A stretch of DNA of 64,000 bases from Marsupella aquatica. Lineage: Eukaryota > Plantae > Marchantiophyta. The position numbers were made by a program, and so were the translations under genes. The stretch's first letter is position 1, and the number at the start of each line of letters is the position of its first letter. Under the pieces are notes generated by a model. It was not told where the DNA came from. It saw nothing but the letters and a program-made list of their open reading frames with translations, and searched no databases. Shown here one piece after another: positions 7,728 through 51,888 of this stretch. Where the stretch lies: contig OZ316892.1 of NCBI GenBank assembly GCA_973895155.1, forward strand, positions 10,706,283-10,770,282, given 5' to 3'.

Positions 7728-8644
7728 CACTAGAAGAAAACATGGCCCTTTATGACCAATTATCCAATGACCGAAATGAATAAATGACCAAAATTGGCAA
7801 TGACACAAAATGAATGACAGGAGAATGACTGTCCAAAATGACGGTCAATAGACTGAAATGACAAAATGATAAATTTTGCGTCATTTAGCCTAATGTCTAT
7901 AATGACACAATTAGTATAAAATGGTCAATTTAGACATACGTCCTAAATGACGCAACCAAGTACAACAATGATAAATCAGTGTTTAGCACCATTGTAGTCA
8001 CTTTGGACAACGGTCGTAAATGACCAACGCCTAGTTGGGTCATTTTGGACAACGGTGATAAATGACAAAAAACCTATTTTTGTCATTTTAACCAACGCTG
8101 CTAAATGACTAAATTTAGGGTCAATCTAAAAATCAAGATATCTCAGTGTTTACAACAACATATAATCATTATGCACTTATCTCATAAATGACTAAATCTA
8201 GGGTCAGTCTAAAAATCAAAATATATCAGTGTTTACAACAATATATAGTCATTACGGACGTTTGTATCATAAATGATTACTTGTAAAGTCAATCTAAAAA
8301 TTAGGATATATCAGTCTTTATATTAATATATAGTCATTACAAACTTGTGTCATAAATGACTACTTCTAGAGTCATTAAGGAATCAATGATATATCAGTGA
8401 TTTTTTAATTTTATTTTATTTTTAAATTTGAATTTTATTCCGCGTGAACCCCATGGATGAGGGGACCAAGCAGGCCAAACGGCAACAATCCCAAAAGGGC
8501 AGTGGGTACAAGCTCCAAGACCAAAGAGTCCAGTAAGGAGCATGATATCTTTCTAACACTAGGCTCTTGGCAGGCCAAAAGCACATATCTAAAAAACAAA
8601 CGTGAAGGGCAGGCCATCCAAAGTCCAGCAGAGGGACATTACTT

Positions 8645-9708
8645 TCATGAAGATTCAATACGTCTAATTCTACCACCTAAAATCTTGCTTCTTTCTCTAT
8701 CCAGCATAACAGTAGCACCCATCAGACGATCATGTTTCTTGCTTGTTCCAGATGTGACTGTCACCCCAGAAAGATGATCAAGCGTCCCAGAAATAATAGC
8801 TATTTGATCAAAGTTGCGTTTCGTGGTCTTTGTCAAGTCAAAGATCTGTCCATTCCGAGCAGTCCAGATATTCCAGAGGATTTGGTAGATTAAAAAGGCA
8901 CATAGTGTGCTCAGTGGGGACTTCACACGGCAAGACAGTAGGAGATCAAAAATGCTAAAGTCCTGGCCAATAATCTGTCCATTCAACCAGCCACTTGTCT
9001 CGCTCCAGCAGCTCTGTGCATGTCGGCAGTGAAAGAAAAGGTGTGGGATAGTCTCAATCACCCCCCGGCAGAGCTCACAGCAGCCATCAGACTTCAAAAT
9101 CCGCAAAGCCCTGGATCCGGAGAACAGGCCCTGGGCAAGAACACGCCATACAAAGGTTTTAGCCCTGGTGGACAGATCAGATTTCCAAGAAATCTGCCAG
9201 ACATCACTCCATTCTTTCTCTGAAAGCATGACATCCCAGATCCTGTTTAGCCGAACGTAATCAGATCCCTTAGTGCGGAGCATATCATAAATCCTATGAT
9301 TAGATAAAACAAATAGCTTGGGATGTGAAGCAAGATCAAGCCAACGCCATTGTCTGGCAGGGGAGTCCACGTTACTTCCCTGGAAGGTAGTCAAACGGAT
9401 TGTATCCAGAAGAGCAAAGCAAGTTCTCTTGAGATCCTCAGGGAGCCCACGAATGCGATGCATCTTATCATGTAAGTCCTTCCACTCGTGGACAGCAGGG
9501 GACCAAAAGTCACATACTTTCCTGATCCCCAGTTTCCCACAAATCTTAACAATGCTAGTTCTGATGTCCTCCTGCAAGTCGTAGTATCCATGTAAGCATC
9601 TAAGAAGGTCTTCGATCCCCCAATGACCGGGAATTGAGCCAGTGCCAGGGCAGAAGATCAGATTCCCTCTCACCTGCATCCAAGCACTCCAAATCTGTCC
9701 TGTGTACT
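8645..9708 (-). pseudogene. L1 ORF2 C-terminal part (zf-RVT region)
   Basis: W..SWKSDLSTRAKTFVWRVL...CELCRGVIETIPHLFFHC...W...IWTARNGQIF. In frame with the 26509-side part once the CACTA and one ACT copy are removed. Confidence 0.88.
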
Positions 9709-10565
9709 CACTAGAAGAATCCGAGGTGAACTGAGACCGCAATATATGACTCATTTTGGCTCATGTGACTTCATTGTGACTCAACGTGACTTGACCCACG
9801 CTGTGACCCTTGGAGTTGCAAAAGTTGAGACCAAAAAATGGAAGTCACTATTGATACTGGGCTTTGCAACTTGCTTGATACCCATTTGTGACTGATCTGT
9901 GACTTTATTGTGGAGTCTAGCCTTGTTTCAATGTGACTGCAATATGACTTCAGCGAGTCACATCGTAAGTCACATACATGACTTACTCGCATTCAACAAC
10001 GACTACCGTGTGACTATTTAGTGTCACAGGAGAGACCAATGGAGACCCTGGCCCGCGTCACACAACAGAACCATTTGGGACTCTATATACTCATGTTTAT
10101 AACTAATAAGGTTCACATGCAAGTTATAACCATGACTAATGAACACAGAGGGACAGTTCATAAGGAGAGAGAGAGCACTCGACATTACAATACATAGAAA
10201 CCTGATGTTCTAACTTTAGAAATATAACACATTGAATACAAGAATTGAACATAGCATGAATGACATCCACATGAAACAAAGCATCATATAAGCAGATCCT
10301 ACATAAAACATTCATAAGAATTAAACACAATCACAATCTTGCTAAAAAATGAAGATCATTTGAATTCCAATGGAATAGTTTACAATGTGATCAATGTAAT
10401 TTAGACAAAACAGGAACTCATAATTGATGACTGTAGGATGAGATAACTGAAAGCACGTGCATGATACTATGAATCTCCAAGAGGACATGATTCTTGTACT
10501 GCTTCTTGACATCTAAAATCTACATAACATGACTCACGCTACAAACAAATAATGGCATGACATTG

Positions 10566-13500
10566 TTATGGATCCTCTATGAACTTGCTTGGCCATAATA
10601 CCAAAGAACCTGCAGCATCTCCAAGTGTCTTTTGAGGAGGATCATCATTTGTGTTTGGAATGGGAAGGACAGCTTTAGGTTTCACTAGTAATGTGACTAA
10701 CACTACTGAATAACCTGGGGGAATCCTCTTGCCATGGAACGTTGTGGAACCAACCTGCACTCTGGCAAATCCTACTCGTGTTCCACTCTCATCAACAGCT
10801 AACAAGCCACTTTGTCCCTCAGCATTAGGTGCTTTCCCCACTTCCATCTTAGATCTTTCTGCCAGCACTGTTCTTGGAGGTTTGTATGAAACCTTTGACG
10901 TGGCTCTGCTCCCACCAGCAGACTTGCTTCGTGTGTGCATGCTTCCTCTCTTCACAGTAGTGAAGCTAGGCTCAGTAGGTTCCTCTGTTAGGACTGTCAT
11001 AGTAGCAGGTTCATCACCTGGGAGTGTCATACCAACTAACTCTTTGGTTGGATTTATCTCAACAAGAGGCACACCTGTCATTGAGAATGATACATTCTGC
11101 AAATCATTTATCTCTGCAATGGAGTCAAGATCTACATAGCATGAATCTGGCTCAATGGTATCATTGTCATGCTTGCTGATATCCTCATTTGCCCCAACAT
11201 TGATATCATCCACTCCCTTGCCAATGTCATCCTCATCCAAACATGGTTGACTGCCCTCTGTCAAACAAGTTGCTTGTACAGACTGCAACTTTGTTGCCTC
11301 TAAATTACAGCGAGTATTTGCCAGGTTCTCATACTTCTTCTCTGTAGCACCTGTCTTATTCTCTATGGACACAACAACCACAATATATGTTACTGAAAAT
11401 AACACATTCAACAAACAATGTCAATTCAAACTATACATTTAATAATCATATCCCACACAGTTGTAAAGGCCTTACCTTCAAGCCTACATGTCGTTGGCAT
11501 GCCAGAAGAGTGCATCGACTTTGCCACCTCAAGTGGTGATGGTGGAACTCCTGCAGAATTGGAATCAATTTTATCTCTCACCGACACAACAGCTTCCATT
11601 AATGTCTTGAAGTTCACATGGAACAAGTCAGTCAATGAATTCAAACGTTCATTGATCTCTGGAAGACATGTTTCGACAGCCTTCAAACGACTACTTATCT
11701 CTGTAAGTGAAGATCCACCTCCCTACATGACACAGGGGTATAGGTTCAATCACTCCATATGAAATGTTGGGCAATATATGCACAATCAATGTTATATACA
11801 GTGTACACCTGAAATTCAACGCAGGTCATTCAATTACCAATCAGAACTCATATAACTTACATGCTTGGAGGATTCAGATGCACCCTCTTGAGCCCGGGTG
11901 TTCACAATTTCAGCCCTCAACTCTTCTTTTGAAGGGCTTTGCCCCAATTGGGCTTTCTGCACATGCATGGCAAACACAAGTTATCGATCAATATTCAGGG
12001 AACGTACACTAAAAAACAAAGTTTACATGTATGGGTTTACACTAAAAAACAGTACATAGTGTAGCATAAATTACATAGCTAGGCCATTCATTCTTACCAA
12101 ACGTTTAGCTGTCGGTGCAATGCCGGTCCTTCCTGTCAGATTAGGGATCTGAACACTCAACCTGGCCTCGGTCATCTGTGAACTCTTCTTTTTTGAAGCA
12201 TCTGTTACAAAATAAGCTACTAACCTTGCCCACACTTTATCATCACAACTGGCTGGTGGAGGCATATCTGGCTTCTCCCCACCTTCCTTCCAAGCCTTAT
12301 GCATTCTCCACCTCTCTTGCTTGATAATTTTACCTGCTGTACTCTCTAGGCAACCTATGTCCATGCCATCATCACTGCCCACATAATTCCATTTGGCAGC
12401 AACATTTTCACATACAGTCTTCCAATCTTCCAATACTACTTCCATGTAGTACTGGGCGTTGTATTGGCCACCCCTTCATTCACCCTACCTGGGGTTCTGA
12501 AGCCAGCTGGGAAAATACAATGCCGTTCATGCTTGAGAACTACATATAGCAGAATGGATGACGGCAACATTCAATGCTTCACTTCAAGAAAAATTCTTCA
12601 AACATACATACCTGTAGCTCTGCCTGTAGATGCCTGTGCAGGGACTGCACTCTGAAATTGTTGCGACCCTAGACCACCTGTCCAGCCTAGTACAGGGGCC
12701 GGATGATGTCACTTTCTAGGTATGTGTGTGCAAACATATGTACTGAAAACTAAGTACAAACTGTAGGAAAACAACTGAACATTCACCGACATACCTGTCC
12801 CCCTTCCGTGCTGCATCTGCATAGGGGCATTAGTGAATACTTGAGTCGATGGTTCAACTGTCCAACCTGCACACATACATTTTCTATCATTATACATGTG
12901 CAGAGTCCCCCCCCACGTGAATGGACTCCACATATAATGAGTTCTTCCATTGCTGACAAGATCAGACATTACCTACTTGTAGGTACTGAATTTTGATATC
13001 CCTGCCAATTACCTTCACCACCTTCCCAACCTTGTTCATTCCACGACCCACCACCATCCTCCCAACCTGGTTCAACCCATGTCTGTCCTTGTGGACATTG
13101 GAACTGATCATTACTAGCATTTGCCCAATCAGGTTGGGCAGAATCTGCATGCAATGGCAGGTGGACAGAATTTCATGTTGTCTGAGTCCAATACATCCCA
13201 AACAATGTCAAAAATTGATATGCAGTCTGAAATTCAGGAGTGCCATGCCTTCACAAAGAACTGGCATATAGATATATACTCACATCCCCATGGTTGAGGT
13301 GGACGTCCATACCCACGAGATTGTGGGTTTGGACCTGCTCTGCCTCTACCACGGGCATAACCTAGAGCTTGCCCCCTGCCATAGTATTGGGCACTAGCCT
13401 GGGATCTACCACTACTACCACCTTGCCAACCTTGATCAGAGGTCAGCCCCCCCTGCTGGTATGGTGCATGCACAGGCTTCGAAGGCAAAACAGAACTGGC

Positions 13501-13900
13501 AGGACACTGCATCACATCACCAACTACAATGTCAGGAACTAAGCAAGGTACATATGTGTAGTACTGAACATATGAAACCTCTAAACAAGAGTTTTTAACT
13601 CAAAACCTTGTTGGGAAAACTACTTACATGTTTCTTTTGGGGCTGCTCTGCAATGTATTCATCTTCATAACCCCCATCCTCATCCATTTCCTCTGGAAAA
13701 TACTCATCATCTGCATCTTCTTGTCTAGTGTCTGCACCCACCTGTGCAGCATCAATGTCATCTCCACATTCTGCCATTGTAGGTACGACCTTCTTGCTCA
13801 ACCTGTCACTCCGACGCACAGGCCCAGAGATAGTGCTGGTCACCCTTCTTGGGTACTCCTTTTGTTTCTTTGAAAATGCTGTGGCTCTGCGACATTCCAA
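10566..13900 (-). CDS. CACTA TnpA-like accessory protein (multi-exon; boundaries approximate)
   Basis: The exon at 12071-12445 has the Ptta/En/Spm-like motif PPPASCDDKVWARLVAYF...SSQMTEAR...TGRTG. The last exon ends with a TNP1-like domain FHGKRIPPGYSVVLV...LPIP...TLGDAAGSLVLWP. Confidence 0.75.
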
Positions 13901-14261
13901 TATGAGAATACAGTCACAATTTCAGTGCTACATTGAACTATTCATGTCACACAAACTCAGCGGAGGGGTGTAGTTGAGAATCGTTCCCTTACAATTCAGC
14001 CACATCCTTTTCTAGATCCAGTTCTGCGATTTTGGCTTTCACGTATGCTCGTTGTTCCATAGCTTTCCTTTCATACTCACACATCTTTGTGTCACTGTGT
14101 TCCATCCTACTGGACCACAAAAACATGTCATCTATGGTCACCCCGTATAACACAATGCAACCACAATCACCAGGCATCCATCCATACATCTGTGTTGCTT
14201 CAGAATTACTTTATTACACATCCTTCCCCTCACTAATGTCCATGCAAACAATTCACATTAC

Positions 14262-17200
14262 TCATGGCACAGGCACACTGTTGGCATCTACATCTCTGAA
14301 TTCGCCTCCTTCAGCAAATGCATCTACCCTTGTCACAGGAATGAAGTCCCCGCTATCATGAACTACAGGCACTTGGTCTGAACGCCGACGATCAAAGGCA
14401 CTATGAGAGTGTAAATGAAACTCAAGGTTTGATCCTTCCATCCGACGTTGCCTGGCCTGTTTATGACACACTACACGCCAACCTGGGGAGTCTTCCACAT
14501 CCAGGAAGAAAGCTTGCTCCACCTGACTAGGAAACACAAATGGCTCAGACCATTCGGGCAATTTCCCTCTGAAATTGGCCAGCAAGAAACCGTCGTTGTC
14601 TCTCTTCATGGTAGCCCTGTTACCAAGCCAATCCTGCCGCACCCATGAACCTTTCATAAGAATCACAGGACTGGACACCGCCCCATAGTCCAGAGCCCAT
14701 ATGTCAACTAATTCTCCCACATATCCCATCTCCATCCAGGCCCTGTCGTGATTGTGGCTCTGTTGCTCAAATACAGTGATGAGCCCGCAGTCATTCGTCA
14801 CCCTGTAGGCACTGTCACCATCCTTCACTCGGAAGTGATTCCCATATGCTCTCATCCGTTTGTAAGTCTTCACTTTCAGGCTAGGGGCATTAGACAGTAG
14901 GTAAACATCTGCATCCATGTCTGGGTGGGTCTCGTGATGCTCTCTAATTGCCACTCTGATCCACTCCATGAAACCTGGAAAAGTTGTTCCTGCAGTGGGA
15001 TGGGCCGCCTTCAATGACTCATACTCCCTGAACGAACAACCACACAGCATTAGCTTGGGTAAACATGAACAGGCTGAAGGAGAAAACCACACGAACACAA
15101 CATTTAAGCTCATGAACTGGATTATAGCACATGTATGCACTCACTGTATCCAGGGTTCCATCACCGCAGTGTTGTGCAATACAAAGTCATGTGCCAAGTC
15201 TCTCATAGATATGGTCAGGTTCTTTGTGGTTGCAGCCCCTTCCAGTACTTCACCTATCACGCCTTCCTCCTCATCAGAATTCCACACCCTGGTCTTCACA
15301 TGCTCATATTGTGCTATGTATTCGGTCAGAAATCCCAGAGTCTCATCCTTGATGTAACCTTTAGCCATGCTTGCTTCAGGTTTGTAATATGTTCTCACGT
15401 GACCTTTGAGTAGCTTCATGTACCGTTCCAAAGGGTACAACCAACGAGCACTCACAGGCCCAAATTGGTGTAGCTCTTCCACAACATGGACAAGTAGGTG
15501 GGTCATGACATCAAAAAATGTGGGAGGAAAATAAATCTCCAGGTCACACAGCACCTGAGCGACATCTTCTGTCAGTTGTGGGAAGTGTGTTTCATCCCAA
15601 ACCTTCACACAAATACGACGAAACACATCACTGAGTCGCATGATCACAGTACGAATAGGCTTCTGCAACAGGCCCCTCAGGCATAAAGGCAACACCTGTT
15701 GCATCAACATATGGTAGTCATGGCTTTTCATACTACCAAGCTTTCTAGTCATGATATGCTTCTTGAAAGCACTGCCATAGTTTGAAGGAACCTTCAAAGA
15801 ACTCAACCTCTGCACAAATAGTTCCCACTCTGTGTCTGTCAGAACATAGGGCGCTTGGTACTTCAAGAGCACATCAGCTCTGTGGGCATGTGGCCTCAAC
15901 CAAAGATGGGGTTTCATTCCCCTCTGTTCAAGATCCAATCTCATTGAACCAGTGTCTTTCTCTCCACACAAGAATCTGAGTAGACTCTCACAAATATTCT
16001 TTTCAATGTGCATAACATCAATGTTATGTTTGCTTGGCTCAAACTCCTGCATCGTTGCAATGCAAAAGCGTCAGGAAATGCCTCAAGTTTAGTCTCTCTC
16101 TTCGAAATGAATGCACATGCTCTGAACCAAAACATGTATCCCAATTAGCATCAACTCCAAGAGGCTTACCCTCCAGTACTTGAGCTCCAAGTCCAATATG
16201 CTCAGTCTTTTTACACCATATCGCTTTATTGGATCACTCACTCCATCTTCCCTGCCCCCTCGTTTGATATAGTCATCCCTCAGTGCTCCCCACTGCCTGA
16301 TCTCCTCTTTGGTCACTCATGCCGGGGGTCCACGTTGCTCAATCTCATTGCCAAAGTGTGCAATCAGTGCCTGTCTTTCTCTGTAAGGGTGATCTGCCTT
16401 CAGAAAACGACGATGGCCCATGTATATCACTTTCTGCAGGGCTCTGGAGTACTCACTGGTGACATTGCGCCCACAGATAGTACAAGCACAATATCCTTTT
16501 GTTGTTTGGCCTGATATCATCCCATGGGCTGGGTAGTCAGCTATAGTCAGAATGACAATGGCTCTAAGGATGAATGGGTTTAACCTCCCAAGCCTCTGTA
16601 GGACATCATATGTGAGAACTCCTTCCTCCCAAAGCTTTCTCAATTCCTCCACTAGGGGAGCCAGAAACACATCTATGTTGGCAGATACAGCACTGTCTGG
16701 CCCTGGTATCAGTAGGACCATCAGAACAAAAAATCGCTTTGTAGTCATCCAAGGAGGAAGGTTATAATTCAAAATAGTTACAAGCCAGCACGAAAATTTG
16801 TTGTTCTTGTCTCCAAATGGGTTTACCCCATCCAATGACAGCCCAAGTCTGACATTCCTCGGCTCAGCAGCAAATTCAGGATACATCTCATCTATGAGTT
16901 TCCATTGCCTTGAATCTGCAGCATGTTGTTGTAGCCCATCATCACTTTTCTTGTCAGTTGCCCAAGTCATCATCTCCGAGATGGCACGGCTTCTGAACAT
17001 CCGCTGAAGTCTGGGAATGAGTGGAAAATGACGAAGTACCTTGGCGGGAACCATAGACTTTCCTGAGTTCCGATACCTGTGCTTCCCACACTTAGGGCAT
17101 GTCAACGATTCTTTATACTCCTTTCTGAAAAGAACATGCCCATCAGGACAGGCATGGATCGAATCATAGTTCAATCCAAGATTAGATATGCATCTTTTTG

Positions 17201-17993
17201 CCTCGTACATGTTCTTGGGCAAAATATTACCATCTGGTAGCACAGTTGTTCGCAAGAATGCCAACAACTCAGAAACCAAAACGTTGGGGACATTGTGGTT
17301 GCCGCAAATGTTCAGGAACATGATGACAAATCCCAGTTTAGAACATTTGCTACCGGGGTACAAAGACTTCCTGCCTTCCTGTATTTGCAGGGGAGAGCCA
17401 AACATCCCATCGTGCCCAGGGGTTTCCTGCCCTATCTCAAACTCATCAAGAGGCTCTTCGACAGGGGGCACACTTGCATCTGCAGCCGTATCCTCTTCGT
17501 TGTCCAGCCCATCATGAAATGCATCCAAGTCTTGGAAGATGTCTCTCACCATCTCTTCCACATGAATTCCTTCATCACGTGGTGCTGCCTGAGCACCATC
17601 CCGTTGGAGAGCTGACAACCCACAGAGACCAGCTACAACATTTTCAAATGCACCAGGCAGAACCTCACTTGCCCGTCTTGCAGCACTGGCAGCATCAAAT
17701 TCTAACCTCCACTCCTCGTCGGAAGAATCTTCCTCTGCAGGATCATTCCAAACTCGATGTCGTGGATCTCTTCCATGAACCGCGATATGCCGCCAAACCT
17801 CATTCAGACCCCTGGTACGGGATCCTTGGCAGATTGCACAAGGACATCTCATCCTACTGGCTCCTGAAAGTCTGGTTCGTAACCTTTCACGCTGCCAAAG
17901 CTTATTATCATGGCGTGATATCCTTGTGGGATGATGCAAAGGCAGTGCCTGTGCCCTGGGCTGGGTCTGGGGAGGGTGGTGACCAGGGTGCAT
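14262..17993 (-). CDS. CACTA TnpD-like transposase (Transposase_21/Tnp2 + DUF4218 + DUF4216), one in-frame stop
   Basis: Motifs RCPCAIC, IHACPDG..CPKCG..RY, FPLIPRLQRMF, FAAEPRNVRLGLSLDGVNPFG, DVMHIEKN, MKSHDYH, FFDVMTHLLVH, EPFVFPSQVEQAFF. Predicted exons 16170-17993, 15145-16046, 14262-15027. TGA at 16317-16319 (likely CGA>TGA). Confidence 0.93.
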
Positions 17994-18426
17994 TGTAACA
18001 GGCTGGGAGCTCTACAGTCATGGACAGCAGTGAACAAGGATGCCTAATGGTGGTATTTGTGTTCCATATATCCCTAACTGTATCTGCCAAAAGAGTTAAC
18101 ATAACGTGTACTAAATTCTCACAAACCCTAAACCACCCCAAAAGAAAAAAACAGGTTCGCAAGTAGTGTACCTATTGTCAAGTGAATGACACAAAATTCC
18201 TAAATGTTGGAGGGTGTCACCACCTCCTCCGCTGTCCTCAAATGTACCGCCTCTGCATGTACGTTTACAGTGACACCCCCAGGCAGCAGGAAACAACAAT
18301 CCGCCAACAGTAAAATAAGCCCAACTGCCACCAACCATAACAAGGTACATTAGTTCAAAGATCACATTTATTTCAATGATCTGATTTATACAAAAAAACT
18401 TGTGTCCAAACTGATGCTACTACTCC

Positions 18427-19299
18427 TCACTCTGATTCATAATCGCTAATGACCCATTCCTCACTTGTTGTCTCATAGTCCTCTCTGTAAGGATCCTGAC
18501 CCTTCCGTGGCCAGGCCTCAAAAAGATCATAGTCCATTGGGTTTTGACGCTTCCCAGCTGCTACTGATTCCACAAGCCAAGCATATGAAACCACAAACAC
18601 ATTATGGGACATGACATAAAAGCGAATGTCTCCCTTCCCAAACTTGCGGCAGGCTTTGGGATATGACTTAGTAATGACATGAGTGGTGTCCTCTGTTATA
18701 TTCTCCTCCACTATCCCACCTAGGTCAAGCACTGTGGACTTGTACACTTTGCACTTAACCTCTCCAATTCCCGCCTCCACAAATACCATGCTCAGCCCTT
18801 TCAGAATGGGGGTTGGTTGCTTCGTCTCCTCAGCCAACATACTCTTCAGCCTTGTAGAGCTCTGTCCTTTGTTGAGTACAGGTCCATATTGGAGATCAGC
18901 AAGCCGTGCCTTTGCTTCCCAGACTTCTTGTTCAGCCCAAGCTGATGCAGTAGCTTCTTCATCCTCCCACAACTCATATTGCTCAGTATCCTGTACAATC
19001 TTATGTGCTACGGAATCTGTGATCCAAGAGGCCTCAACTACTTTTAGGCCTTGCTTAGTAATTGCAGAATTCATGTAGGACCATGACCACTTCTTTATCA
19101 CTGATAGCCATGTCCCTGCAACAACATGTGTAGTCTCTGGAGTGATGTCCTGAACTACAGTGCCATGGAGCTCAGAGAATCGTTTCTGTACAGTTGGCCA
19201 ATGCACTTTGGTCAACCCATGCTGGCCATGGACCAAAATCGCTCTGACCCCTGTAAACACTGCTGGGTGGTCACACTTTCTACGTTTACCAGACTCCAT
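18427..19299 (-). CDS. Transposon-borne tandem-BRCT protein; repeats resemble the plant DNA polymerase lambda BRCT
   Basis: Two repeats: FTGVRAILV...HGTVVQDITPETTHVV...VVEASWITDS...YEL and LKGLSMVFVEAG...GGIVEENITEDTTHVI...KFGK...VVSYAWLVESVAAG...YDL. Intact and intronless, ATG at 19299. Confidence 0.82.
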   Translation of the reverse strand: MESGKRRKCDHPAVFTGVRAILVHGQHGLTKVHWPTVQKRFSELHGTVVQDITPETTHVVAGTWLSVIKKWSWSYMNSAITKQGLKVVEASWITDSVAHKIVQDTEQYELWEDEEATASAWAEQEVWEAKARLADLQYGPVLNKGQSSTRLKSMLAEETKQPTPILKGLSMVFVEAGIGEVKCKVYKSTVLDLGGIVEENITEDTTHVITKSYPKACRKFGKGDIRFYVMSHNVFVVSYAWLVESVAAGKRQNPMDYDLFEAWPRKGQDPYREDYETTSEEWVISDYESE

Positions 19300-19891
19300 G
19301 TACACACACCCTACGTGATGACAGTGAATTTTGGAAGAATGGGTTCACCTGACAATACAAGGACAACAAAATTCCTACTTTTTGAGTTGATCTGGCCCAC
19401 TGGTGCTCAGGTCCGATTTTGATAGGTACAAGGGATATGTGAACAATACGTACTAGGCACCTGCACGGATGCAGGACATTGTTTGAATATATACTACAAA
19501 ATCCATATCCGTGGTGAAATGAAGTGCAACCAACTTGTCATGGCACATACATATTTTGTTGTAAAGGAGGATACATTCAATGACAAACTTATAGGGCAAT
19601 TTGATTAATTGCATGCCTGATAATTTATACGCTTACAACTTAGAAGTCCTGTTTTAATTTAGCAGTCTGATGAAAGTGTTTATGAAAATGACCACTCAGC
19701 CTAAATACTTCCAAGAAGGCTTGTAAGGATAAGTTTGTATAGGCATGTACCCAGCCACTGACACCATAGCACAAGATAAGTGCTGCCTATATAAACTCGC
19801 CTACCCAACTCCTTTTCAAAATTGGAATCTCTGCAATCTCAAAAAATAGTACATCCACATCAGATGCACTGTGCATGTACAATGTTCAGCT

Positions 19892-20572
19892 TCACAGCCA
19901 AGATATGTGATCTCTCATAGGAGTGCGCGAGGTAGGATCAATGGCATGGCGATGACAATAAAATATCCATCGATCAACACCATGTGTAGAGTGATCATAG
20001 ATTTCTCTGTCACAAGCATAACCCTCTGCTTGATGATCTTTCAGGCAATGATAGTGCCACATAGTGGGACACCTAGCACAGTGGACTATGTCAGTCCAGT
20101 AGTCATCATCATGCTCACCACATGCCTTGCACCTATGAAGTGGGCAAGCTGTGGCATGAGCAGGCAAACACTCAAAACAGAAAAATCTCACACAAAAACG
20201 GTCTGGACATTTCCTAACATTTGCTGCAGCATCAACAGAGCCCTCATAGGACCCCAACTTCCCACACTGTGCACACTTAGCCTGCTTCTCCAAACAATCA
20301 GTGCACATCCAGTCTCCCTGGTGTGTTGACGGGAGGCCCACCCCTGGACAGTTGTTTTCTGCAGCATGGTCAGACTCCAGGTTGAGGTGGAAATGCCTCA
20401 TGCAAGGGCCCTCACAAATGACCAGGCCCCCACCATCGTCACAAATGGCACAACAATGAGCTGCCTTCTGGAAAATCTGACTTGTAGAGAAGTTAGTAGC
20501 ATCTGCCCCAAGTACACCTGTGTTTCTCACCTCTGTCACACGCTTTTTGGCTTGAATTTTAGGCCGTGCCAT
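19892..20572 (-). CDS. Transposon-borne stand-alone EDM2-like composite PHD-finger protein (226 aa)
   Basis: CAICDDGG.LVICEGPCMRHFH...WMCTDC...KCAQCGKLGS...CPLHRCKAC...CARCPTMWHYHCL...IFYCHRHAIDPTSRTPMRDHISW follows the EDM2 PHD cassette (CAICDNGG..CCEG.C.RSFH...CPLHKC...CRRCPKSYH..CL...IYCxxHEID....TPxRDH). Intact ORF. Confidence 0.88.
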   Translation of the reverse strand: MARPKIQAKKRVTEVRNTGVLGADATNFSTSQIFQKAAHCCAICDDGGGLVICEGPCMRHFHLNLESDHAAENNCPGVGLPSTHQGDWMCTDCLEKQAKCAQCGKLGSYEGSVDAAANVRKCPDRFCVRFFCFECLPAHATACPLHRCKACGEHDDDYWTDIVHCARCPTMWHYHCLKDHQAEGYACDREIYDHSTHGVDRWIFYCHRHAIDPTSRTPMRDHISWL

Positions 20573-20582
20573 GCCTGCGCAT

Positions 20583-20727
20583 GAGATAGACTCTACAATT
20601 TAGCAGACTGCACAGAAAGTAAAATATATTTAGCATTTAAGGTACAAAGGCATTTAGATAGACTCTACAATTTAGCAGACTGCACAGAAAGTAAAATATA
20701 TTTAGCATTTAAGGTACAAAGGCATTT
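20583..20727 (+). repeat. Tandem duplication of ~72 bp in the intron upstream of the PHD ORF
   Basis: gatagactctacaatttagcagactgcacagaaagtaaaatatatttagcatttaaggtacaaagg occurs twice. Confidence 0.85.
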
Positions 20728-21342
20728 GCTACTGCAATGAATTGGAATGGCCACACAAGGATGCAGAGCACACATACTTTTGGTATGTTGAGCCCACACA
20801 CAAAACTGATCCCCTAATACAATTTCTCCACCAACACCTCAATTTTAATTGTGGCTATGATTCACCAAAGGAGATCTGCAACAACATTTCATGCATTTGA
20901 ATCACATACAATAGTCATGACATGTAAAACAGGCATTCTTCGAAGAGGATTGGTATGAAGCAGTGTCATAAGGGTTGAAATTTATACATCCTAAATAGGT
21001 TATGATAGTGGTTGAGACAAATAAGTGAGGCATAAATCATTTTGCATATTATCACATGGCCCATTAATTCATTCAACGTTGCAATGTTCACCAGGTTAAA
21101 GCAGTCATGAAAGCAGTCTTTCAATAGAGACTGTTATGCGAGTTTGCTAGCCTCTTAAATTAGGATATTTTGCTTAGTGCAGGCATAATAGGATATAAGT
21201 TATGTACTGTTGACCCTAAACCCTGGACCCAAAATTGCTCATACATCAAAATTTTAAGTAAATATCCTCTGTGTTGAAGTCAGAGTGTTAAGCTATAGGT
21301 CAATGGTATCTGGTTTGTGCATGCGGTGTGACAAGTGGTCCT

Positions 21343-21792
21343 CTAGAGCATGTGATCCAAACATGTGTAGACACCAAAGTCACCGGTGGTGGGGTCTGGG
21401 AGGGCAGGACAAGTGACATCACCAGGCACACTGCAGGATGGCGAGTGGTTCCAGATGATACATTGTGCTCTGTGCAAAAATCGGCATCCAAGAGAACGGT
21501 CATCCAATTCTGGGCCAGAAGCCCTATAGGCAGGACAGTCATATTGGCAACTGTGTACACACCCTTGGCACCTAATTTGTGGCGGGTCATGTACAAGAGA
21601 CACAAATACCAAGGATGTCGGGAAGGGTACTGAAGCAGGTAGAGGCCGGCTGTAGTTGTTCCTGGAAACAACAGGGTACTCAAAGTACCATGCAGACTGG
21701 GCTGGAAGGATCCCAAGTCTGACATACTCAAGGCGCAACATCTCTGCCTTGCGTGCAAGTCGCACATGTTCAGCGTTGCGGGTCCTCACCAT
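21343..21792 (-). CDS. Cys/His-rich putative zinc-binding protein, 149 aa (CACTA cargo)
   Basis: Basic N-terminus MVRTRN..RLARK, then CQGC..SCQYDC...GCRFLHRAQC...C...C...CLDH. Co-oriented with the other cargo ORFs and preceded by a splice acceptor near 21921. Confidence 0.5.
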   Translation of the reverse strand: MVRTRNAEHVRLARKAEMLRLEYVRLGILPAQSAWYFEYPVVSRNNYSRPLPASVPFPTSLVFVSLVHDPPQIRCQGCVHSCQYDCPAYRASGPELDDRSLGCRFLHRAQCIIWNHSPSCSVPGDVTCPALPDPTTGDFGVYTCLDHML

Positions 21793-22800
21793 AAGTGTTG
21801 CTTTCGTTGTGATGTCCTCTGTTCACGTCCTTTGATGAGCAAGGTGAGCAAGAGGTCGACTTGCCTCGCCAACAGCAACCACCTAAACTAATCAGTTCCC
21901 ACTCATTGTCTTGGTTCCAACTACAGGTCATAGTATACACATAGCATGAAACGTGCATAGTACATATTTGATTCTGAGTTTATGAGTTTCCTAAGACAAA
22001 GAGCTTGGTGATAAACCCATATTCTCGACGGACATGTATATCAATCATATTAAACTCCTGTTTTTTCATCCAGAAAGACCGAAAGTCTCACCTTGCAGGT
22101 TGCAGCAGAGAGAAAATTCACTGGTTGTCGTGTTGTGCAAGTGAACCTCCACTGATGCCCCGGTGTAGCCCCTCAGATGCAGGTGACACTTACCAACTCC
22201 CAAGTTGCCTGGTCTAACAGAAAATGTTTATATCTTCAGAACTTTATAGAGCAAGTACATGATCACATACTTCTGGATCTATTCATATTTGGAACTCTTG
22301 CCAACTACAACTCCCATTATGCACAAGCTCACATCAACAGAGAAAGATACAGAATGCATACTTACTATGGCTCTAAGCACCTTCACTACCTTGTTGAACC
22401 CAGTCCTGAAGTCTTTTCAGCGTGTTTGTTGTGCTGTCTCCTTTGGCACCCAACACCTTAGTCCTTGATGTAACAGAATGCGATTTTACAAGTTAGATGC
22501 TTTGGAACCTTCTATGGTCTTAGCTGAATTGATGTCATCGTAAGTGGTGAAAGACAAGGAAGACGAAAACTGGTTGAAGAGCTGTGGACAACACACTAGC
22601 ATGAAGTGCTTCAACCAATCCACTGCCAAACGGAACTCTTACACAGTCACATTCTTTCAGTAAACAGAAACTCAGTCAAACTTCATAATCAAAGTACAGA
22701 CTCTGAAGGACCAAAGGAGGATGTTGTGAGTTTCTCTGTTGTTTAATGTGTTACCCTTCTAGTTTCGAAGTTAGCAAATGCTGAATAATGTGTCTACCAG

Positions 22801-23140
22801 ATCTTCGAAAAGAAGCCCACCACAATTAAGAACTTCGGTATCTGGGTGAGGTATCAGAGTTGTACAGGTTATCCCAACATGTACAAGAAATATCGTGATA
22901 CCACATTAAACAACCACACAGCAGATGTATGATGAGATGGCTTCTTGTCATAGAGTTCGGTTCCCTTGCATCCAGATCATCAAGACTACGACAGTCCCTG
23001 TCTCTCTGTGCAAGCGAGAAAGTACCAAGCAGTTCCATGATTCAAAGATCAAGTTCCCCTTGACGTACCGCAAGATTCAACCTCCATCGCGAAAGCTAAA
23101 GACGACTTACAAGGCCACCAAGCCCAACACATTTGTTTGA
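22801..23140 (+). pseudogene. RPL18A: Captured last exon of 60S ribosomal protein L18a (eL20), frameshifted
   Basis: After ...ctaccag|: [37 protein letters not shown], then a frameshift (~22915), then [22 protein letters not shown]...[18 protein letters not shown]...[19 protein letters not shown]. Confidence 0.92.
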
Positions 23141-26100
23141 GTAGTGCGGGTGCAGGTTCCCAATTTTGAAACAATTTGGCTCATTTTATGTCCCGAGGGA
23201 CTCCAGGAGTTTATGTATTGAGTTTCTAGGTCAAGATGCTTAATATAAGGAAATTCAATTATCACTTCGTTCCCAACTTCTATTAATTGAATATACACAA
23301 GCTGGAAGCAAGAAGACAAGCCACAATCTAGCATCTTAGCCAAACACAATCGTCCCGACAAAGCAAAACTCAGCTGGACAGAAGTCACTCGGATCCACAA
23401 AAAATTGAAGATTCACCTCCAAGCCGGAGGCCGATCACTTCAGTACAGCAGCTTCTGGATGGAACAAACTCTGCTCAGCCCCACATAAACACAAATGTTA
23501 AGGCTCCAAGTCAGAGCTCACAAACAGAAACTCAGATAAATAACATTCAAAATCTGTCCAGGTTTGTGCAAAGTGTACATATTCATTCTTCTGGAATGAA
23601 CACGCAATCCATAAGAACGAAAGTAGGAAGGCAAGCGCACGGGCCACCGAGAAAAGTAAAGGATGCATGTGTTAGTGGGGAGGGATCTTAGCAAAAACAG
23701 GGGAAAGCAAGGGAACTTGCTGCTAAAATCAGCTGAACGATTGCACGGTTCCTATAAATTTAGTGGACCTTAAGGCCGTCTGTTCACCCCCCCACCCCAC
23801 CGCCAGAGCACGGGGCACAAGGCATGTTCTGATATAGGGAGGAGCGAAACAGTCATGTCAAGCAAGAAGTGTGGAGAGACCAATCAGTAAGCAAAAATAG
23901 GGGAGGACATACATACATCAGCAGCAGCAGGAAACAAGAAAGATGATTTCGGGTGGCATCTTAGGGTCGGGGACACCACTGCAACACCGGGACTTAGGAT
24001 ATGACTAAATGTAAGCTACACAGTCCTCCGTTCTCTTCAACAATTACCTTAAACAGTGAAGTAATCTAAATGGATGTTGATCAAAATCAATTGCAACTAC
24101 GCGGCCCTTGGTTCTGCTGCGGCTACAGCAGCCAAGAGAACAGCTCAGAGCCTTGATTGAAGACTGTGCTCTCAAACTAAGCTAAAGACAAAGAGATATA
24201 GAGAGAGACAAAAAAAAGTTGACAGGAGTGCAAAGCGAGAACCCACTCCCGTTCTTTCAACACCCTAAACCCCGCTGCCTGACTTAAGTTGCATGGCGAC
24301 AGAAGCAGTCATTGAAAACTTACCTTGTGATGACAAAAACGCTCTGGGATGGGCTGCTACTCCCAGGACTATCCCACACTCTTAGCGCCCCGTTGCTATT
24401 GAGCCACACTTCAGTTCAGCCACGCACGCTCAATCTTTGTCATTCAGCTAAGTTTAGCTCCGCAGGGCCTGGACTCACTCTCATCCAATTTCAGTTGATC
24501 AGTATTGCAGCTCTCTGCTCCCAAGAATAGGTCCTTGCGTTTGTTGAGCGCCTCTATAGACTCACTTACCTCCAAAAACACTGAAAGTTTTTATCTGCAT
24601 TACAATGAGCTCTAAAGACCAAAAACATTCCCGCCTAAACTGAAATAGAGTCCGCAACTACAAGCTTTGCAGCTCAACTCTCTGAGCTCTCCCAGCTCAA
24701 AGGTATCAGCATGTTGTACCCACACTTGATCGAACGCTCTTCCAATGCTCGCTAGGTTGATCTTCCAATGCTCACGGTAAGCTATGGACACCAAGCTCAG
24801 AAGACCGTGGGGAGACAACTAAACTTGCAGCGACGTAGGACCGCAAAGATAGGGATTGCAGCTTTACCTGGGGCGATGCAGCACCAAGCCGTGCTGCGTA
24901 GCAATCCGCAGCAAGAATAGTCCAAATGCAAGCCAAGTGACAAGCTCCTGGTTCTCGATCCCAAGTTGCAACTGAATATCGAATTCACTCTCCTAGCTTC
25001 AAGGAATGAGTGTCTATTGAATGTTGAATTAAATTCTCGCAAACTCTTCACAGTGCTTCCCGTAGTGCCTATTGTCGATGCAACACACAATCACTCTTGA
25101 TGCCTACTACTCACATTCCCTTTTCTCAATGCAACACACACTCGCTCTTCTCGCCTCCTACTACTCACATTGCCCAACGATCAACGAAAGCAGAAGGACA
25201 GGACAGGGAGAACCCTTTCGCAGCTCAGGACGGCAAGGCTAGGAGTGTATACACATCGGGCCGCAATAAGGTCCAACCTCAACTTCAAAAAGTGCAACGC
25301 CAAAACTGGAAGCCGGGTCCAATAACAGTCGTTAGTAGGATGTCGTAAAACCCCTAAAGTTGCAGCATTGCCATACTCTACTTCCTCACCCGGTAGCGCT
25401 AGGCATTCGACCTCTCTCTTCCAAAGACCTCGATGACCTCCCACCAGCTCAATGACGATGGCACGCAAAGCTTCCGTTTGGCTTGCAAACCCTTGAGGCA
25501 AACCAACTCCCTTGGAGACCCTTCCCAAAACCCTGTGCGGGAGAGAAATGCCGAACGTGAAGACCACTCACTTGTCTTCCCATTGAAGTGGAGACATTAG
25601 TTCACAAAAGAGACACAAAAGTCTATGATTTGCCTAATTTGTTTTTTCCTTTGAAACCAAAGGACTTACGCAATAGTTATATGTGGGGTGAGTGGTTAGT
25701 CACAACTTTGAACCACCCCCTTTGGTGAAAATGTGGCCAAATATTCAGGTATGACCCCACATTACCATTATGAAGTACACTTTTTTAGGGTTGGGGTAGT
25801 GAAGAGCTGATCATATATATTTAAGTTGGACATTTAAGTTGGACTTATATTGAACATGAAGCATGCATTGGTTGTCATATATGAAGGGGGCCGGGGAAAC
25901 ATGGTGGTTTCTGGGGCATGGCAATAAGTAAACCCAACCTACATATGTGAGGCTGAAATTGGGTGATAATTAAGCACGCCTTTGGCACGACCAGAAGACG
26001 TCGATAGAAAAATTAGAGATTGACTACAAAAAGCATTAAGTTAGGTTAGCAAGCTTTGACAAATCCTTTTTGTAGTTGAATGGGGCTGGGGCGCGCTTCA

Positions 26101-26508
26101 TGGTGTCTAGATGGGGGTAGGAATAATGATGGAATACTCAGTAATGGCATGGTTTAAAATGGTATGACCAAATTAGAATTAAATCTATGTGGAATGACAT
26201 ATGGTGTATCCAAAATCATATGTATTGGGTTAGATCTCATACTTTAAGGTTGAAGGGCTCAAATGTTGTGCTCTCATAAGTTGTACTCTAATGTAGAGTC
26301 GCTTGTATGACTTCAACCTAATTGCCTTAACTGAGTTATAGTTACAACTTCCCTAAAAGTTGTAAACATGACTCCTCAAAACTTCACCAAAACTCAGTCA
26401 AGAAGGTGTGACTAACATGACACCAATAACCTTGGAGTCGCTGTTTCATGAAGGTCTCGGACAAGTCACATTCTTTGTGGTCTCAGAAAGGGTGGGTTTC
26501 TTCTAGTG

Positions 26509-29374
26509 ACTATAAACGGCCAAAAGAACGAGGTGTGCTCAAAAGAATCTTGTCCTGCATGGAGTAGCGGTTTCTACGGACAGTCTTAAAGTTTCTCCAT
26601 TTTGTCAGCAGTAAATTCTCAGCATACATTAGAGCCCACTCCGACCCTGGATGATCCAGTGCTCCAGTAAACCACCTGCTCAAGAGGGCATCAGAATAAC
26701 TGCGAAATTCTTTAAAGCCCAGACCACCTTCCATCTTGGGTCGACATAACTTGGACCAGGCCACCAGGGGGATCCGCTTCCCTCCCTGTTTATTCATCCC
26801 CCATAGAAAGACCCGACTCAAGGCTATCAGTCTCTTAGCCAAGGAACTAGGTGACCTGAGAAACATCATGTGGTAGACCGGGATAGCCTGTAGGACATGC
26901 TTGACCAGTAGCACCCGACCAGTGAATGAAAGAAACCGAGTAGACCAAGATGAGAGCCGGGCACTGATCCTGTCAAGACAAAAACCATGCAATTGTGCCT
27001 CAGAGAGATCGTAACCGAAGGGTGCCCCGAGGTATTTTTGGACAACTCCTTCCGCACTGATCAGGCAGCCAGTCTCCCTAAGCCAACCAGGGATGTCATC
27101 TAATGCAATAGGCACCACCACCGATTTGCTTAGATTTAATTTAGCACCCATCGCACGCTCGTAGCAATTAATAGCACATCTAGCCTGTTCAAAAGACTCC
27201 GCTGTGGCAGGAATGAACATCCCAAGGTCATCAGCAAAGAGTCTAAAGCAGATAGTCAAAACTGAAGACACCTGTATACCCTGTAGTCGACCTGCCTCAA
27301 TTTCAGCCTTGAAAAAATCCATGAGCGGTTGAGTAGATAGAACAAAAAGTAAAGGGGAAAGTGGGCAGCCTTGTCGTACCCCTCTGCACATCCTCACATC
27401 AGCGGTCTAGAGGCCATTAACCAGAGCCCTGGAGGTAGCACCACCAATCAACGATTTGACAAGAAAAATAAAGTGGGATCCTATCCCTAACAAGTACATC
27501 GATTCCCAGATGTAGGAATGATCTACTCTGTCAAAAGCTTTTTCAAAGTCCAATTTCAAGAAAAGAGATGGCGTCCTGGTACAATTAATCCAATCATTGG
27601 CCAGCCAGGTGAGGGAGATGTTTTCCAGTATGTGCCTACCAGGGATAAAGCCAGTCTGTTGCGGGCTAATCATACTGGGAAGTAGTATTTTTAACCTGAG
27701 GGCCAACAGTTTAGCAATGAGTTTATAGGTAGTGGTAAGCATGGTCAAAGCTCTCCAATCTCCTAAACGACATTTATCCGTTTTCTTCGGAATAAACCGA
27801 ATCACACCATCACGGATACAGGAGGCAAGTTGTCCTGTCCTCCAGAAATCAGAAATCATGTCATGAAAATCGGCTTCCATGAAGTTCCAGCAAGCTCTGA
27901 ACACTTCTGCCGTCATTCCGTCGATTCCAGGAGCCTTGTCATTGGGTAGCATCATTAGTGTCTCCTGTATCTCTCTCGTAGAGGGAAGCTCTTCCAGCAT
28001 TTTGATTTCTGCCGACGAAGGGGCAAAATGAGTGGTTTGGGTCAGTTCTCTACGAGCTGCATACATATCTCTGAGGGCTTCAGCAGTCCGCACAGGTGGT
28101 GAGTAAAGGGCCTCACAGAAGCTCTGTACTTCTTGAACCACAAGTTTTTCATCCCGTATTTCGCGTCCTCCTTCCACCACCAAGTACTCCATTCTTTCTC
28201 GCTGCCTCTTTGCTTTCACAGTTGAGAAGTAGAATTTAGAAGGCTCATCCCCCTGCCCAAGCCATTTAATTCGAGAGAGTCTGCGACAGTGATGCGCTTC
28301 TTCTAGCTCTAAAGAACGTACACTGTCCTCAGTGTTTGCAAAATCCCTGATGCTATCGGGGGAGTAATCTTCCATGATTGTAATCTTCAGTAGGCAAAGT
28401 TTCTCTTTCAATAGTAACATCTCCTGGTCGCGTGGAAGGGGAGAAGCCTGTAGGGTCATATAGCATTGCCTTATCCTTTGAAAAGCCTGTGCAAATCTCA
28501 TGTGAGGGTCAGAAGGGGGATCCGTCATTCCCGTCCAAGCGGCTTCCAACTTCTCGAGATTATCTGTAGTCCTGAGTACAACTGGGTTAGCTTTGAAATA
28601 GGTGGCGCGACGCTGGTTGGTTTCAGACAGGAGTGGCGGGTTGAGGCGGAAGGATATCAGTATGGGATCATGGTCAGAAAGGGCCGAAGTTCCATCATGT
28701 TTGAGTTCCAATAGTTCCGCAGTCCATCTGCCTTTTTCGCTGAAGTAAAAGCGATCTAATCAGGATTGAACCAGCACTCCATTGCGAATTCGTCGCCAGG
28801 TGAATTTGGATCCATTTACGTGACCAAGGATGGAGATAGCGTCCTGCAAATCCAATCTGAGCTTAAGAAACCTCCAGAACTCTAGCTCTCTGCCGCGGAT
28901 CAGTGGAGAGGGACCCGTTGAGTCTACTCTGGATTCCGTCATATTAAAATCGCCACAGAGTACCCATCTGTCATGGGGAAGCTCATTCTTCAGATCATTC
29001 CACAACAATGTTCTATCGCCTTCTGAGTTAGGTGCGTACACACTGATGAGTCCAAAGTTCCCATCAGCATGCTCCAACTGGACCCAGACTGCTCTCCCTC
29101 TGTCAAGCTGTCCCGATCCAAGGACCTTGAAGGAGGGGTTGAGAAGAATAGCAGTTCCACCTCGACCTTCATCAGGGGCAGAGTAAAAGAATTGATAATT
29201 GGGTAAAATAGTTTTAAGGGCGAGATCGAGGCGGAAGCCATCAGCTTTTACTTCCTGAAGCGCGAGGGCATCTAGGGGAGGTCTCAAAGTGGAGGTCCAT
29301 TGCAGCACAACATTTTTGCGATCAGGATCACAAAGCCCACACACATTCCAGGATGCAAATGTAAACGTTGCCAT
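26509..29374 (-). pseudogene. L1 ORF2 N-terminal part: APE endonuclease + reverse transcriptase
   Basis: Motifs SWNVCGL, ALQEVK, SVYAPN, GDFN, S*LDRFY, SDHDPI, KAPGIDG, LKLDFEKAFDRV, RQGCPLSPLLF, FADD, KYLGAP. One reading frame with stops at 28760, 27407 and 26510. Confidence 0.93.
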
Positions 29375-30672
29375 GATAGATTTCTTCCTTCGGCAGAACG
29401 TCTTGCCGAACTCAGAGAAAGTCCATCGTAGGAACTAGAGAGTCGGACTACTGGCAGCGCCTGTAGTCACCAAATGCAGAATGTCGGGAGAGCCTTTCAA
29501 TGCCGAGCCAGAGGGGCTGGCCGAAGCGTCCATCTCAGACGGGGGAATCCTAGATCCCTTTTTCAGATCCTTAGCCTGCTTTCGACTGGGCGTCACCCAG
29601 CCTTCAGCGTCCTGCACATTGGAACCAGGAGCGAAGTGTAAGGATTTTTGATTTTTAGCTTTCTTCTTATCTTTCTCTTTTTTCTTGTCATCGGGTGGTG
29701 ATCTTCTGGCCAATTTCCTCGCTCGATCCTTTTTAATTGCAGTACGAGAAATGAAACCTTCATATTCAGACAGCTCCATGTCTGAGGCAATCTCCGAGGC
29801 AGAGAGTTCCTCCTCAACCTCTTCCATGTTATCCGGGGTGCCCTCAATTAGAGAGGCTGGCGCCAACATTTCAGCCTGTCCCAGAGGTAGACCAGATACC
29901 GGTGAGTTTTTGCCAGGGATGAATAAACCAGTCGAGGAGGGAGTCGTAGCTGAGGTCCGCTGCTGTAAATCCTGGATAACCTTAGGAATAGTATTTGAGT
30001 CGGAGAGGATATGCATCGCAGAGGTATCCAATCCTAACCTCTCAGCGGACTCATCAATGGCCCGATCCATCACCACCAGCAGATCCTCAGCAGCATGATC
30101 CTGGGGATTTCCAAAAAGAGCTCCATCACTCGCAGATGGCAGAGCTCCCGCACCAGGAACAAAAGCAGGATCTTCTCCCAGGGCAGCAATGGCGAGTCCA
30201 GCATGAACCTCCGTAGTCGGGACAGCAACCACCGGTGCTTCGGCCCCAGCAAAATCCGGGGGGATCGATGTAGCATCCGTGGGGGGGCGTTCGTCTGGTG
30301 CAACCTCCTCATAGAGTCTACAGTCTCGTGCCAGATGTCCTTTCTTGTTGCAACGAAAGCAATGGAAAGGGATATTCTTTAAAATGACCGGTTGCCAGAT
30401 AGAGAGCCCTTCCTGAAAGCGAACCTCTACACTCAAGGGCAACTCACGTTGCGTGTCCCATAGGATGCAGGCCCAATCATGGGGGTAAGAACTAAGCTCG
30501 TCGCCTTGAATATAATGTAAGTGTGACAGGGCCGCAAACCCGGTAGTAACTTAGTGATGACTTATAATTGCATATATAAGTAGAAAGACAAGTAGGTGTA
30601 GTAAAAGTGTTTAGATTTTCAAATGTTCAAATTTTTTTATTTTTGTTAGTTCTAATAAATGGATGCGACAAC

Positions 30673-51797: not shown

Positions 51798-51888
51798 GGA
51801 GCATCTCGAAACCTCAGGCTCACACGGCGGTACTGACTGATTCCTGGTGAGCATCTCCCAGTACTGTTCACTCACTCACTGTAGCAGC

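Follow-up and report, generated by a model that had tools for sequence, protein, structure and literature searches.

The 64,000-nucleotide stretch of DNA analysed in this study, hereafter the window, contains a CACTA (En/Spm) transposon that is inserted in a LINE and encodes, next to its transposase, a protein with two BRCT repeats. The element, the interrupted LINE and the neighbouring genes are located as follows.

9709 to 26508, minus strand: CACTA (En/Spm) transposon of 16,800 bp inside a LINE, delimited by a pair of terminal inverted repeats, a target-site duplication and an empty site
9709 to 9719, unstranded: left terminal inverted repeat, 11 bp, exact, beginning CACTA; target-site duplication at 9706-9708
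26498 to 26508, unstranded: right terminal inverted repeat, 11 bp, exact; target-site duplication at 26509-26511
9720 to 10100, unstranded: subterminal short repeats, GTGAC at 33 per kb versus 2.5 per kb in mid-element
26509 to 30550, minus strand: 5' part of the interrupted LINE (zf-CCHC, endonuclease, RT)
8645 to 9708, minus strand: 3' part of the interrupted LINE (zf-RVT)
12071 to 12475, minus strand: TnpA-like exon (Transposase_24, PF03004, E 2.7e-5, below the curated cut-off)
14262 to 18011, minus strand: TnpD transposase in three stop-to-stop frames (16317-18011, 15141-16070 and 14262-15140)
18427 to 19299, minus strand: twin-BRCT open reading frame, P0001, 290 amino acids, one coding exon
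19892 to 20572, minus strand: second cargo open reading frame, 226 amino acids, intact, bearing three PHD fingers of the NSD type, immediately upstream of the BRCT frame
22910 to 23140, plus strand: captured fragment of ribosomal protein L18a, broken (PF01775, E 1.3e-5, at 22910-23137)

The same three bases flank both ends of the element and form its 3-bp target-site duplication, and contigs from two of four public runs join both sides directly at the empty-site joint (9705-26509); these contigs may come from other LINE copies or from an empty allele. Read through the empty site, the two LINE halves are in frame, and a single stop codon lies where they meet. The transposase and LINE domains are of plant type and indicate a plant host, likely a bryophyte. 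Four Pfam families are found in the transposase, PF13963, PF02992 (E 1.9e-66), PF13960 and PF13952, and the transposase neighbour noticed in the initial annotation is therefore a CACTA TnpD. With its CACTA ends, duplication, subterminal repeats, TnpD domains and TnpA-like exon, the transposon is an ordinary CACTA/En-Spm element by all features tested, but it differs from the usual TnpD plus TnpA arrangement in its length of 16.8 kb and in carrying two intact extra frames, for the triple-PHD and the twin-BRCT protein, upstream of TnpD. The BRCT gene is encoded within this transposon, between ends defined by the inverted repeats, the duplication and the empty site, as its earlier description as TE-encoded had it. 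On the minus strand the order is DNA with the antisense L18a fragment, triple-PHD frame, BRCT frame, TnpD and TnpA-like exon, and the stop-to-stop frame of TnpD starts about 415 bp downstream of the BRCT frame on the same strand. TnpD has a premature stop in this copy at 16317-16319, where all four runs have a sense codon, so this copy is likely non-autonomous, though its BRCT frame is intact.

Word depth in run X1 is 1799 for the BRCT contig, 1554-1782 for the TnpD contigs and 56 for the LINE flank. The similar depth of the BRCT frame and TnpD fits one multi-copy unit, depth itself being no copy number, and all four runs cover the BRCT region along with the other parts of the element. The bin of the triple-PHD frame exceeds the BRCT frame in depth in every one of these runs; this gene is therefore perhaps common to other element families. 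Judged by eye, it looks like the PHD module of EDM2, a plant anti-silencing factor. Between 24050 and 26425 depth is about tenfold lower in runs X1 and X2, suggesting that the 5' end of this copy is likely not the one found in the majority of copies. A second CACTA end is seen at 7728-8400, its first 12 bases being those of the element's right terminal repeat, followed by repeat arrays; given this end, the LINE may itself lie inside an older related CACTA element.

Domains and predicted structure of the twin-BRCT protein

The following features are assigned to the BRCT gene, all on the minus strand.

18964 to 19266: BRCT repeat 1, amino acids 12-112
18514 to 18810: BRCT repeat 2, amino acids 164-262, the more Pol-lambda-like of the two
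18742 to 18756: helix-1 residues K182, V185 and Y186, which align with R57, L60 and F61 of human Pol lambda
18367 to 18372: candidate poly(A) signal AATAAA, about 55 nt past the stop of the BRCT frame

The frame runs uninterrupted from an ATG at 19299 to the stop at 18427. A TATA-like stretch at 19786-19795 was considered as its promoter and dropped, as it reads better on the plus strand. Pfam recognizes BRCT (PF00533) in two stretches of P0001 at 47.9 bits, against a curated cut-off of 21.3 (E 1.6e-12). The two repeats share 24% identity (E 3e-11), with a local score of 96, where the best of 300 shuffles reaches 44, and an HHalign probability of 96.8%; these comparisons indicate that they are homologous to each other. 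The Pfam scan found no polymerase family in P0001, and no Pol X family for lyase, fingers, palm or thumb was found in P0001 to P0003 or in any family match.

AlphaFold2 with a 24-row alignment predicts two BRCT folds (mean pLDDT 84.8, pTM 0.48). The pLDDT exceeds 90 for the greater part of each repeat, and the parallel sheet, flanking helices and conserved helix-3 Trp of the fold are present. A helix at residues 114-138 joins the repeats and is followed by a low-confidence loop at 142-156. A first model made from three sequences was set aside at pLDDT 36.6. The initial annotation had described two BRCT repeats, quoted short motifs from the sequence, noted an acidic tail and an N-terminal KRRK, and remarked on the missing polymerase domain. 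The repeats are confirmed by Pfam, by their mutual alignment and by the model, the quoted motifs are all present in the translation, and the Pfam scan agrees that the polymerase is missing. Aspartate or glutamate occupies 9 of 28 tail residues, and KRRK is found at residues 5-8, as well as in P0002, and is absent from P0003 and P0007. The annotation also made its reading depend on a supported BRCT fold and on conservation among relatives; the predicted structure supports the fold, and P0001 is conserved in a protein family.

At residues 274-281 (about 18457-18480) the acidic tail has a Tyr followed by Thr/Ser and Glu, a motif common to P0002, P0003 and P0008 and missing in P0009, P0013 and P0019. 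It resembles a CK2 site of the type read by FHA domains in repair proteins.

A family of twin-BRCT proteins

A word-based homolog search returned two full-length relatives of P0001 with 60% and 55% identity. Among the three closest proteins, invariant columns make up 52% and 46% of the repeats and 5% of the variable linker. A family profile searched against 1.84 billion representative sequences gave 56 matches, which comprise 17 family members, 3 unplaced single-BRCT proteins, 19 Pol-lambda-type proteins and 17 other BRCT proteins, the last mostly with several repeats each. Three of the 19 Pol-lambda-type matches have Pol X catalytic domains, one of them with a cluster member named DNA polymerase lambda; the remaining 16 are N-terminal pieces assigned by profile score. 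Aligned family members share 21-60% identity, and distant members with two repeats have 264-321 amino acids and 21-30% identity. Because both repeats are present in these distant members, the duplication appears to be old, although two separate captures instead of one duplication are conceivable. Family conservation was judged at the protein level only. Conservation is strongest around helix 2 and along the linker helix (W64, V67, W73, T117 and E123; Y213, C217 and G221): W64 is kept in 16/16 and W73 in 15/16 repeat-1 rows, and the helix-3 Trp is present in 15/16 (W92) and 12/12 (W241) family rows.

None of the twin-BRCT family members looked up bears a gene name. Searches among longer proteins found no relative, which is weak evidence, and no locus could be confirmed by scanning metagenome contigs (with the BRCT alignment and with TnpD) or viral contigs. 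The ESM Atlas yielded generic BRCT clusters only, under 0.9, and among viral structures the sole matches were weak ones to ligase BRCTs. Two of the three unplaced single-BRCT proteins, P0030 and P0061, are annotated in Riccia fluitans; they have Arg at the position of R57 and no polymerase domain, and are possible pre-duplication relatives.

Relationship to the BRCT domain of DNA polymerase lambda

The second repeat had been likened by eye to the single N-terminal BRCT of plant Pol lambda. A held-out Pol lambda profile, built on four BRCTs whose proteins also contain Pol X catalytic domains, assigns 68.5 bits to repeat 2 of P0001, 55.5 to that of P0002 and 66.4 to that of P0003; 28 other BRCTs reach at most 41.5 bits, and 14 Pol lambda N-termini score 56-125. 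Repeat 1 of P0001 obtains 32 bits on the same profile, within the range of other BRCTs. The spacing of strand 1 is free of gaps in 18/18 Pol lambda domains and 23/25 family repeats versus 2/27 other BRCTs. The reference domains were all chosen for their likeness to the query, to the advantage of both reference classes. In pairwise comparison a Pol-lambda-type reference comes out best for 22 of the 27 family repeats (2 of these being ties), and in profile comparison Pol lambda wins 13 of 27 repeats versus 14 of 27 for a broad profile built from other BRCTs. Repeat 2 has its best pairwise match in P0022, an algal N-terminal piece; repeat 2 is 23-26% identical to angiosperm Pol lambda, 36% to a BRCA1-like domain and 39% to a fungal Pol lambda.

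Phylogenetic analysis used a 76-row set, assembled after removal of 14 proteins that were near-duplicates or fragments and of any domain below 75 residues or 9 bits, and a careful tree of 50 rows, from which 26 further long-branch, fragment or redundant rows were omitted. In the quick tree, 27 of the 28 other BRCTs fall on one side (SH-aLRT 90). In the careful tree, where the Pol lambda grouping has support of 82/82 and 85/94, one clade (85/94) unites 13 repeat-1, 10 Pol lambda and 3 single-BRCT rows. The Pol lambda-side branch is not starred in either tree, and one other BRCT lies inside it in each. AU tests reject no rival grouping, whether BRCA1-like (p 0.142) or TopBP1/REV1 (p 0.054). A clade of the family with plant Pol lambda is neither recovered in the tree nor rejected by AU, so that no particular donor lineage is favoured.

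Structural comparison gives a different ranking. The best match of repeat 2 is the BRCT of PARP4 (PDB 9DFR and related; Z 16.0, rmsd 1.5, 93 aligned), and human Pol lambda follows at rank 45 (Z 11.8, rmsd 2.1, 94 aligned). Human Pol lambda is mid-table in a PDB search with the family profile (E 3.1e-6) and is absent among the 38 PDB sequence matches of repeat 2 alone. PARP4, however, shares just 11-12% identity with repeat 2 and is singled out by no sequence test. The assignment to the Pol lambda type is supported by the held-out profile score of repeat 2 and by the strand-1 spacing and is favoured by both trees, which put the family on the Pol lambda side, though the AU tests leave its rivals standing; the proposed AlphaFold comparison delivered the BRCT fold while placing PARP4 above human Pol lambda. 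On the sequence comparisons, Pol lambda is the best-supported origin of the family, one that we consider probable.

Tandem BRCTs head the Foldseek and PDB sequence lists, Lig4 being second, and the AU tests do not reject such groupings. The protein might accordingly be read as a phosphopeptide-reading tandem BRCT of the BRCA1, TopBP1 or MDC1 type, or as a pair similar to that of Lig4 whose linker clamps it on XRCC4; two BRCTs joined by a 50-residue helical linker do recall the C-terminus of Lig4. Yet the model differs from solved tandem BRCTs by an rmsd of 12-21 A, which argues against a common packing, although at pTM 0.48 and with the linker unresolved the domain arrangement of the model is itself unreliable. 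A Ser/Thr before the strand-1 glycine, at the phosphate-pocket position, is present in 21/28 other BRCTs and scarce in the family (1/10 repeat-2 rows and 4/14 repeat-1 rows, the register of repeat 1 being blurred here by a small insertion), and a DNA ligase catalytic domain occurs in 0/55 new matches scanned. We regard this reading as very unlikely.

With the N-terminal BRCT of Pol lambda (human 2JW5/9G9L, and plant) the protein shares the fold, the spacing of strand 1, the register of helix 1, a similar held-out profile score in the case of repeat 2, and a short basic N-terminus immediately ahead of the domain. It is unlike Pol lambda in having two repeats rather than one, in lacking the catalytic domains, in being transposon-encoded and in its helix 1, where R57 is replaced by Lys in P0001 and is not conserved across the family.

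Possible Ku docking and roles in transposition

One study (PMC12056208) reports that helix 1 of the human Pol lambda BRCT docks on the Ku70/80 bridge through R57 and L60, that the isolated BRCT is recruited to breaks, and that catalytically dead Pol lambda is dominant-negative in human cells unless R57 is changed. Plant Pol lambda, according to work cited in PMC4444747, binds XRCC4/Lig4 via its BRCT and acts at transposon excision sites. Transposon excision breaks, including those of Sleeping Beauty, Mos1 and P, are healed by Ku-dependent end joining in the account given by the portions of PMC3894167 consulted, which describe no separate element-encoded BRCT protein for these three elements.

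The match of K182, V185 and Y186 to R57, L60 and F61, together with this published docking and excision repair, is what points to an adaptor or decoy, in line with the adaptor recruiting or competing for NHEJ machinery that the initial annotation inferred. Because the alignment behind the helix-1 register consists mostly of Pol-lambda-like rows, its match to human Pol lambda serves to set the residue register and to validate those rows, and does not put the query itself to the test. The Ku-contact residues are conservatively kept in repeat 2 of P0001 and P0002; the R57 position is Lys in P0001 repeat 2 and Thr in P0003. The pattern [RK]xx[LIVM][FWYLM] is found in 16/18 Pol lambda domains, 2/10 repeat-2 rows and 2/16 repeat-1 rows, that is, in 4 of 26 family repeats (in P0001, P0002, P0016 and P0028), which weakens a Ku-binding role for the family as a whole. 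With the pattern so restricted and the most conserved positions elsewhere, the function is only a best guess. Our preferred reading, to which we assign a probability of roughly 0.4, is that this is an intact twin-BRCT CACTA gene, likely derived from the N-terminal Pol lambda BRCT and of old duplication, whose product is likely a catalytically empty adaptor or decoy at transposition breaks.

The conservation of the helix-2 region and linker helix, instead of the exposed helix-1 face, may also mean that an accessory protein of Pol lambda origin has lost Ku binding and taken up a new job, such as DNA or RNA binding, or chromatin or silencing work with the PHD protein. Its best structural match is a nucleic-acid-binding BRCT (PARP4; PMC12212138), and the known accessory genes of DNA transposons described in bioRxiv 2025.02.11.637652 and PMC12730594 act on chromatin. 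However, net charge is zero in both repeats (K+R 9 and D+E 9 in one, 12 and 12 in the other), which is untypical of nucleic-acid binding; the low identity to PARP4 and the persistence of the helix-1 pattern in four proteins also speak against such a change. We hold a new job to be somewhat unlikely, though not far behind the adaptor or decoy reading.

The broken L18a fragment, which by eye extends upstream to 22790, indicates that the element captures host DNA, and the two single-BRCT look-alikes are annotated Riccia fluitans genes. The BRCT gene could then be passive Pack-CACTA cargo, a host gene copy without a role in transposition whose conservation is that of the host gene. Against this, the BRCT frame is intact, with one coding exon in TnpD orientation, while the TnpD of this copy is broken, and its coverage goes with the rest of the element in every run; the looked-up family members are nameless, and the family has several diverged subfamilies, as expected of transposon genes. 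Passive cargo appears to us quite unlikely.

If the adaptor or decoy reading is correct, helix 1 of repeat 2 would dock on the bridge formed by Ku70/Ku80, or else on XRCC4-Lig4, and repeat 1 would bind a second partner, such as the transposase complex, through its conserved Trp-rich helix-2 region. The protein might in this way bring end joining to donor and target sites; alternatively, it might keep Pol lambda out of these sites, much like the catalytically dead enzyme in human cells. We speculate that a plant CACTA family has made the Ku-docking domain of Pol lambda into a two-headed transposase-to-NHEJ adaptor or into a Pol lambda excluder, a bolder proposal that we consider doubtful, in which the fast-changing helix 1 of the family would track host Ku.

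Conserved extra genes have been found in other DNA transposons, such as PAG1-3 of Plavaka, TET/JBP of fungal EnSpm and the VANDAL anti-silencing protein, and the twin-BRCT gene is like them in this respect; those proteins, according to the two accessory-gene studies, act on DNA or histone marks. The word BRCT is absent from the main text of both of these studies of superfamily accessory genes. A literature search by title and abstract opening, in a collection with few subscription journals, turned up no paper describing a BRCT accessory gene carried by a CACTA element. Unlike its ordinary CACTA carrier, the twin-BRCT cargo is therefore unusual, though it may have been annotated before. A function at breaks, if true, would make it a transposon accessory protein aimed at DNA repair and not at silencing, and would show an element steering the healing of its own breaks, which would bear on footprints, on the gain of copies and on whether the host survives; genome editing, too, could profit from a small modulator of plant end joining taken from nature. 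Even without Ku binding, this is an undescribed, old protein family, with this member residing in a transposon beside a PHD-finger gene.

Other features of the window

Just upstream of the PHD frame lies an exact 72-bp tandem duplication (20584-20727). Two overlapping open frames of about 160 amino acids at 21300-21822 on the minus strand, which have no Pfam match, are possibly a third, frameshifted cargo gene. On the plus strand, an open frame of 1398 amino acids at 51841-56037 looks by eye like a Copia-type gag-pol polyprotein.
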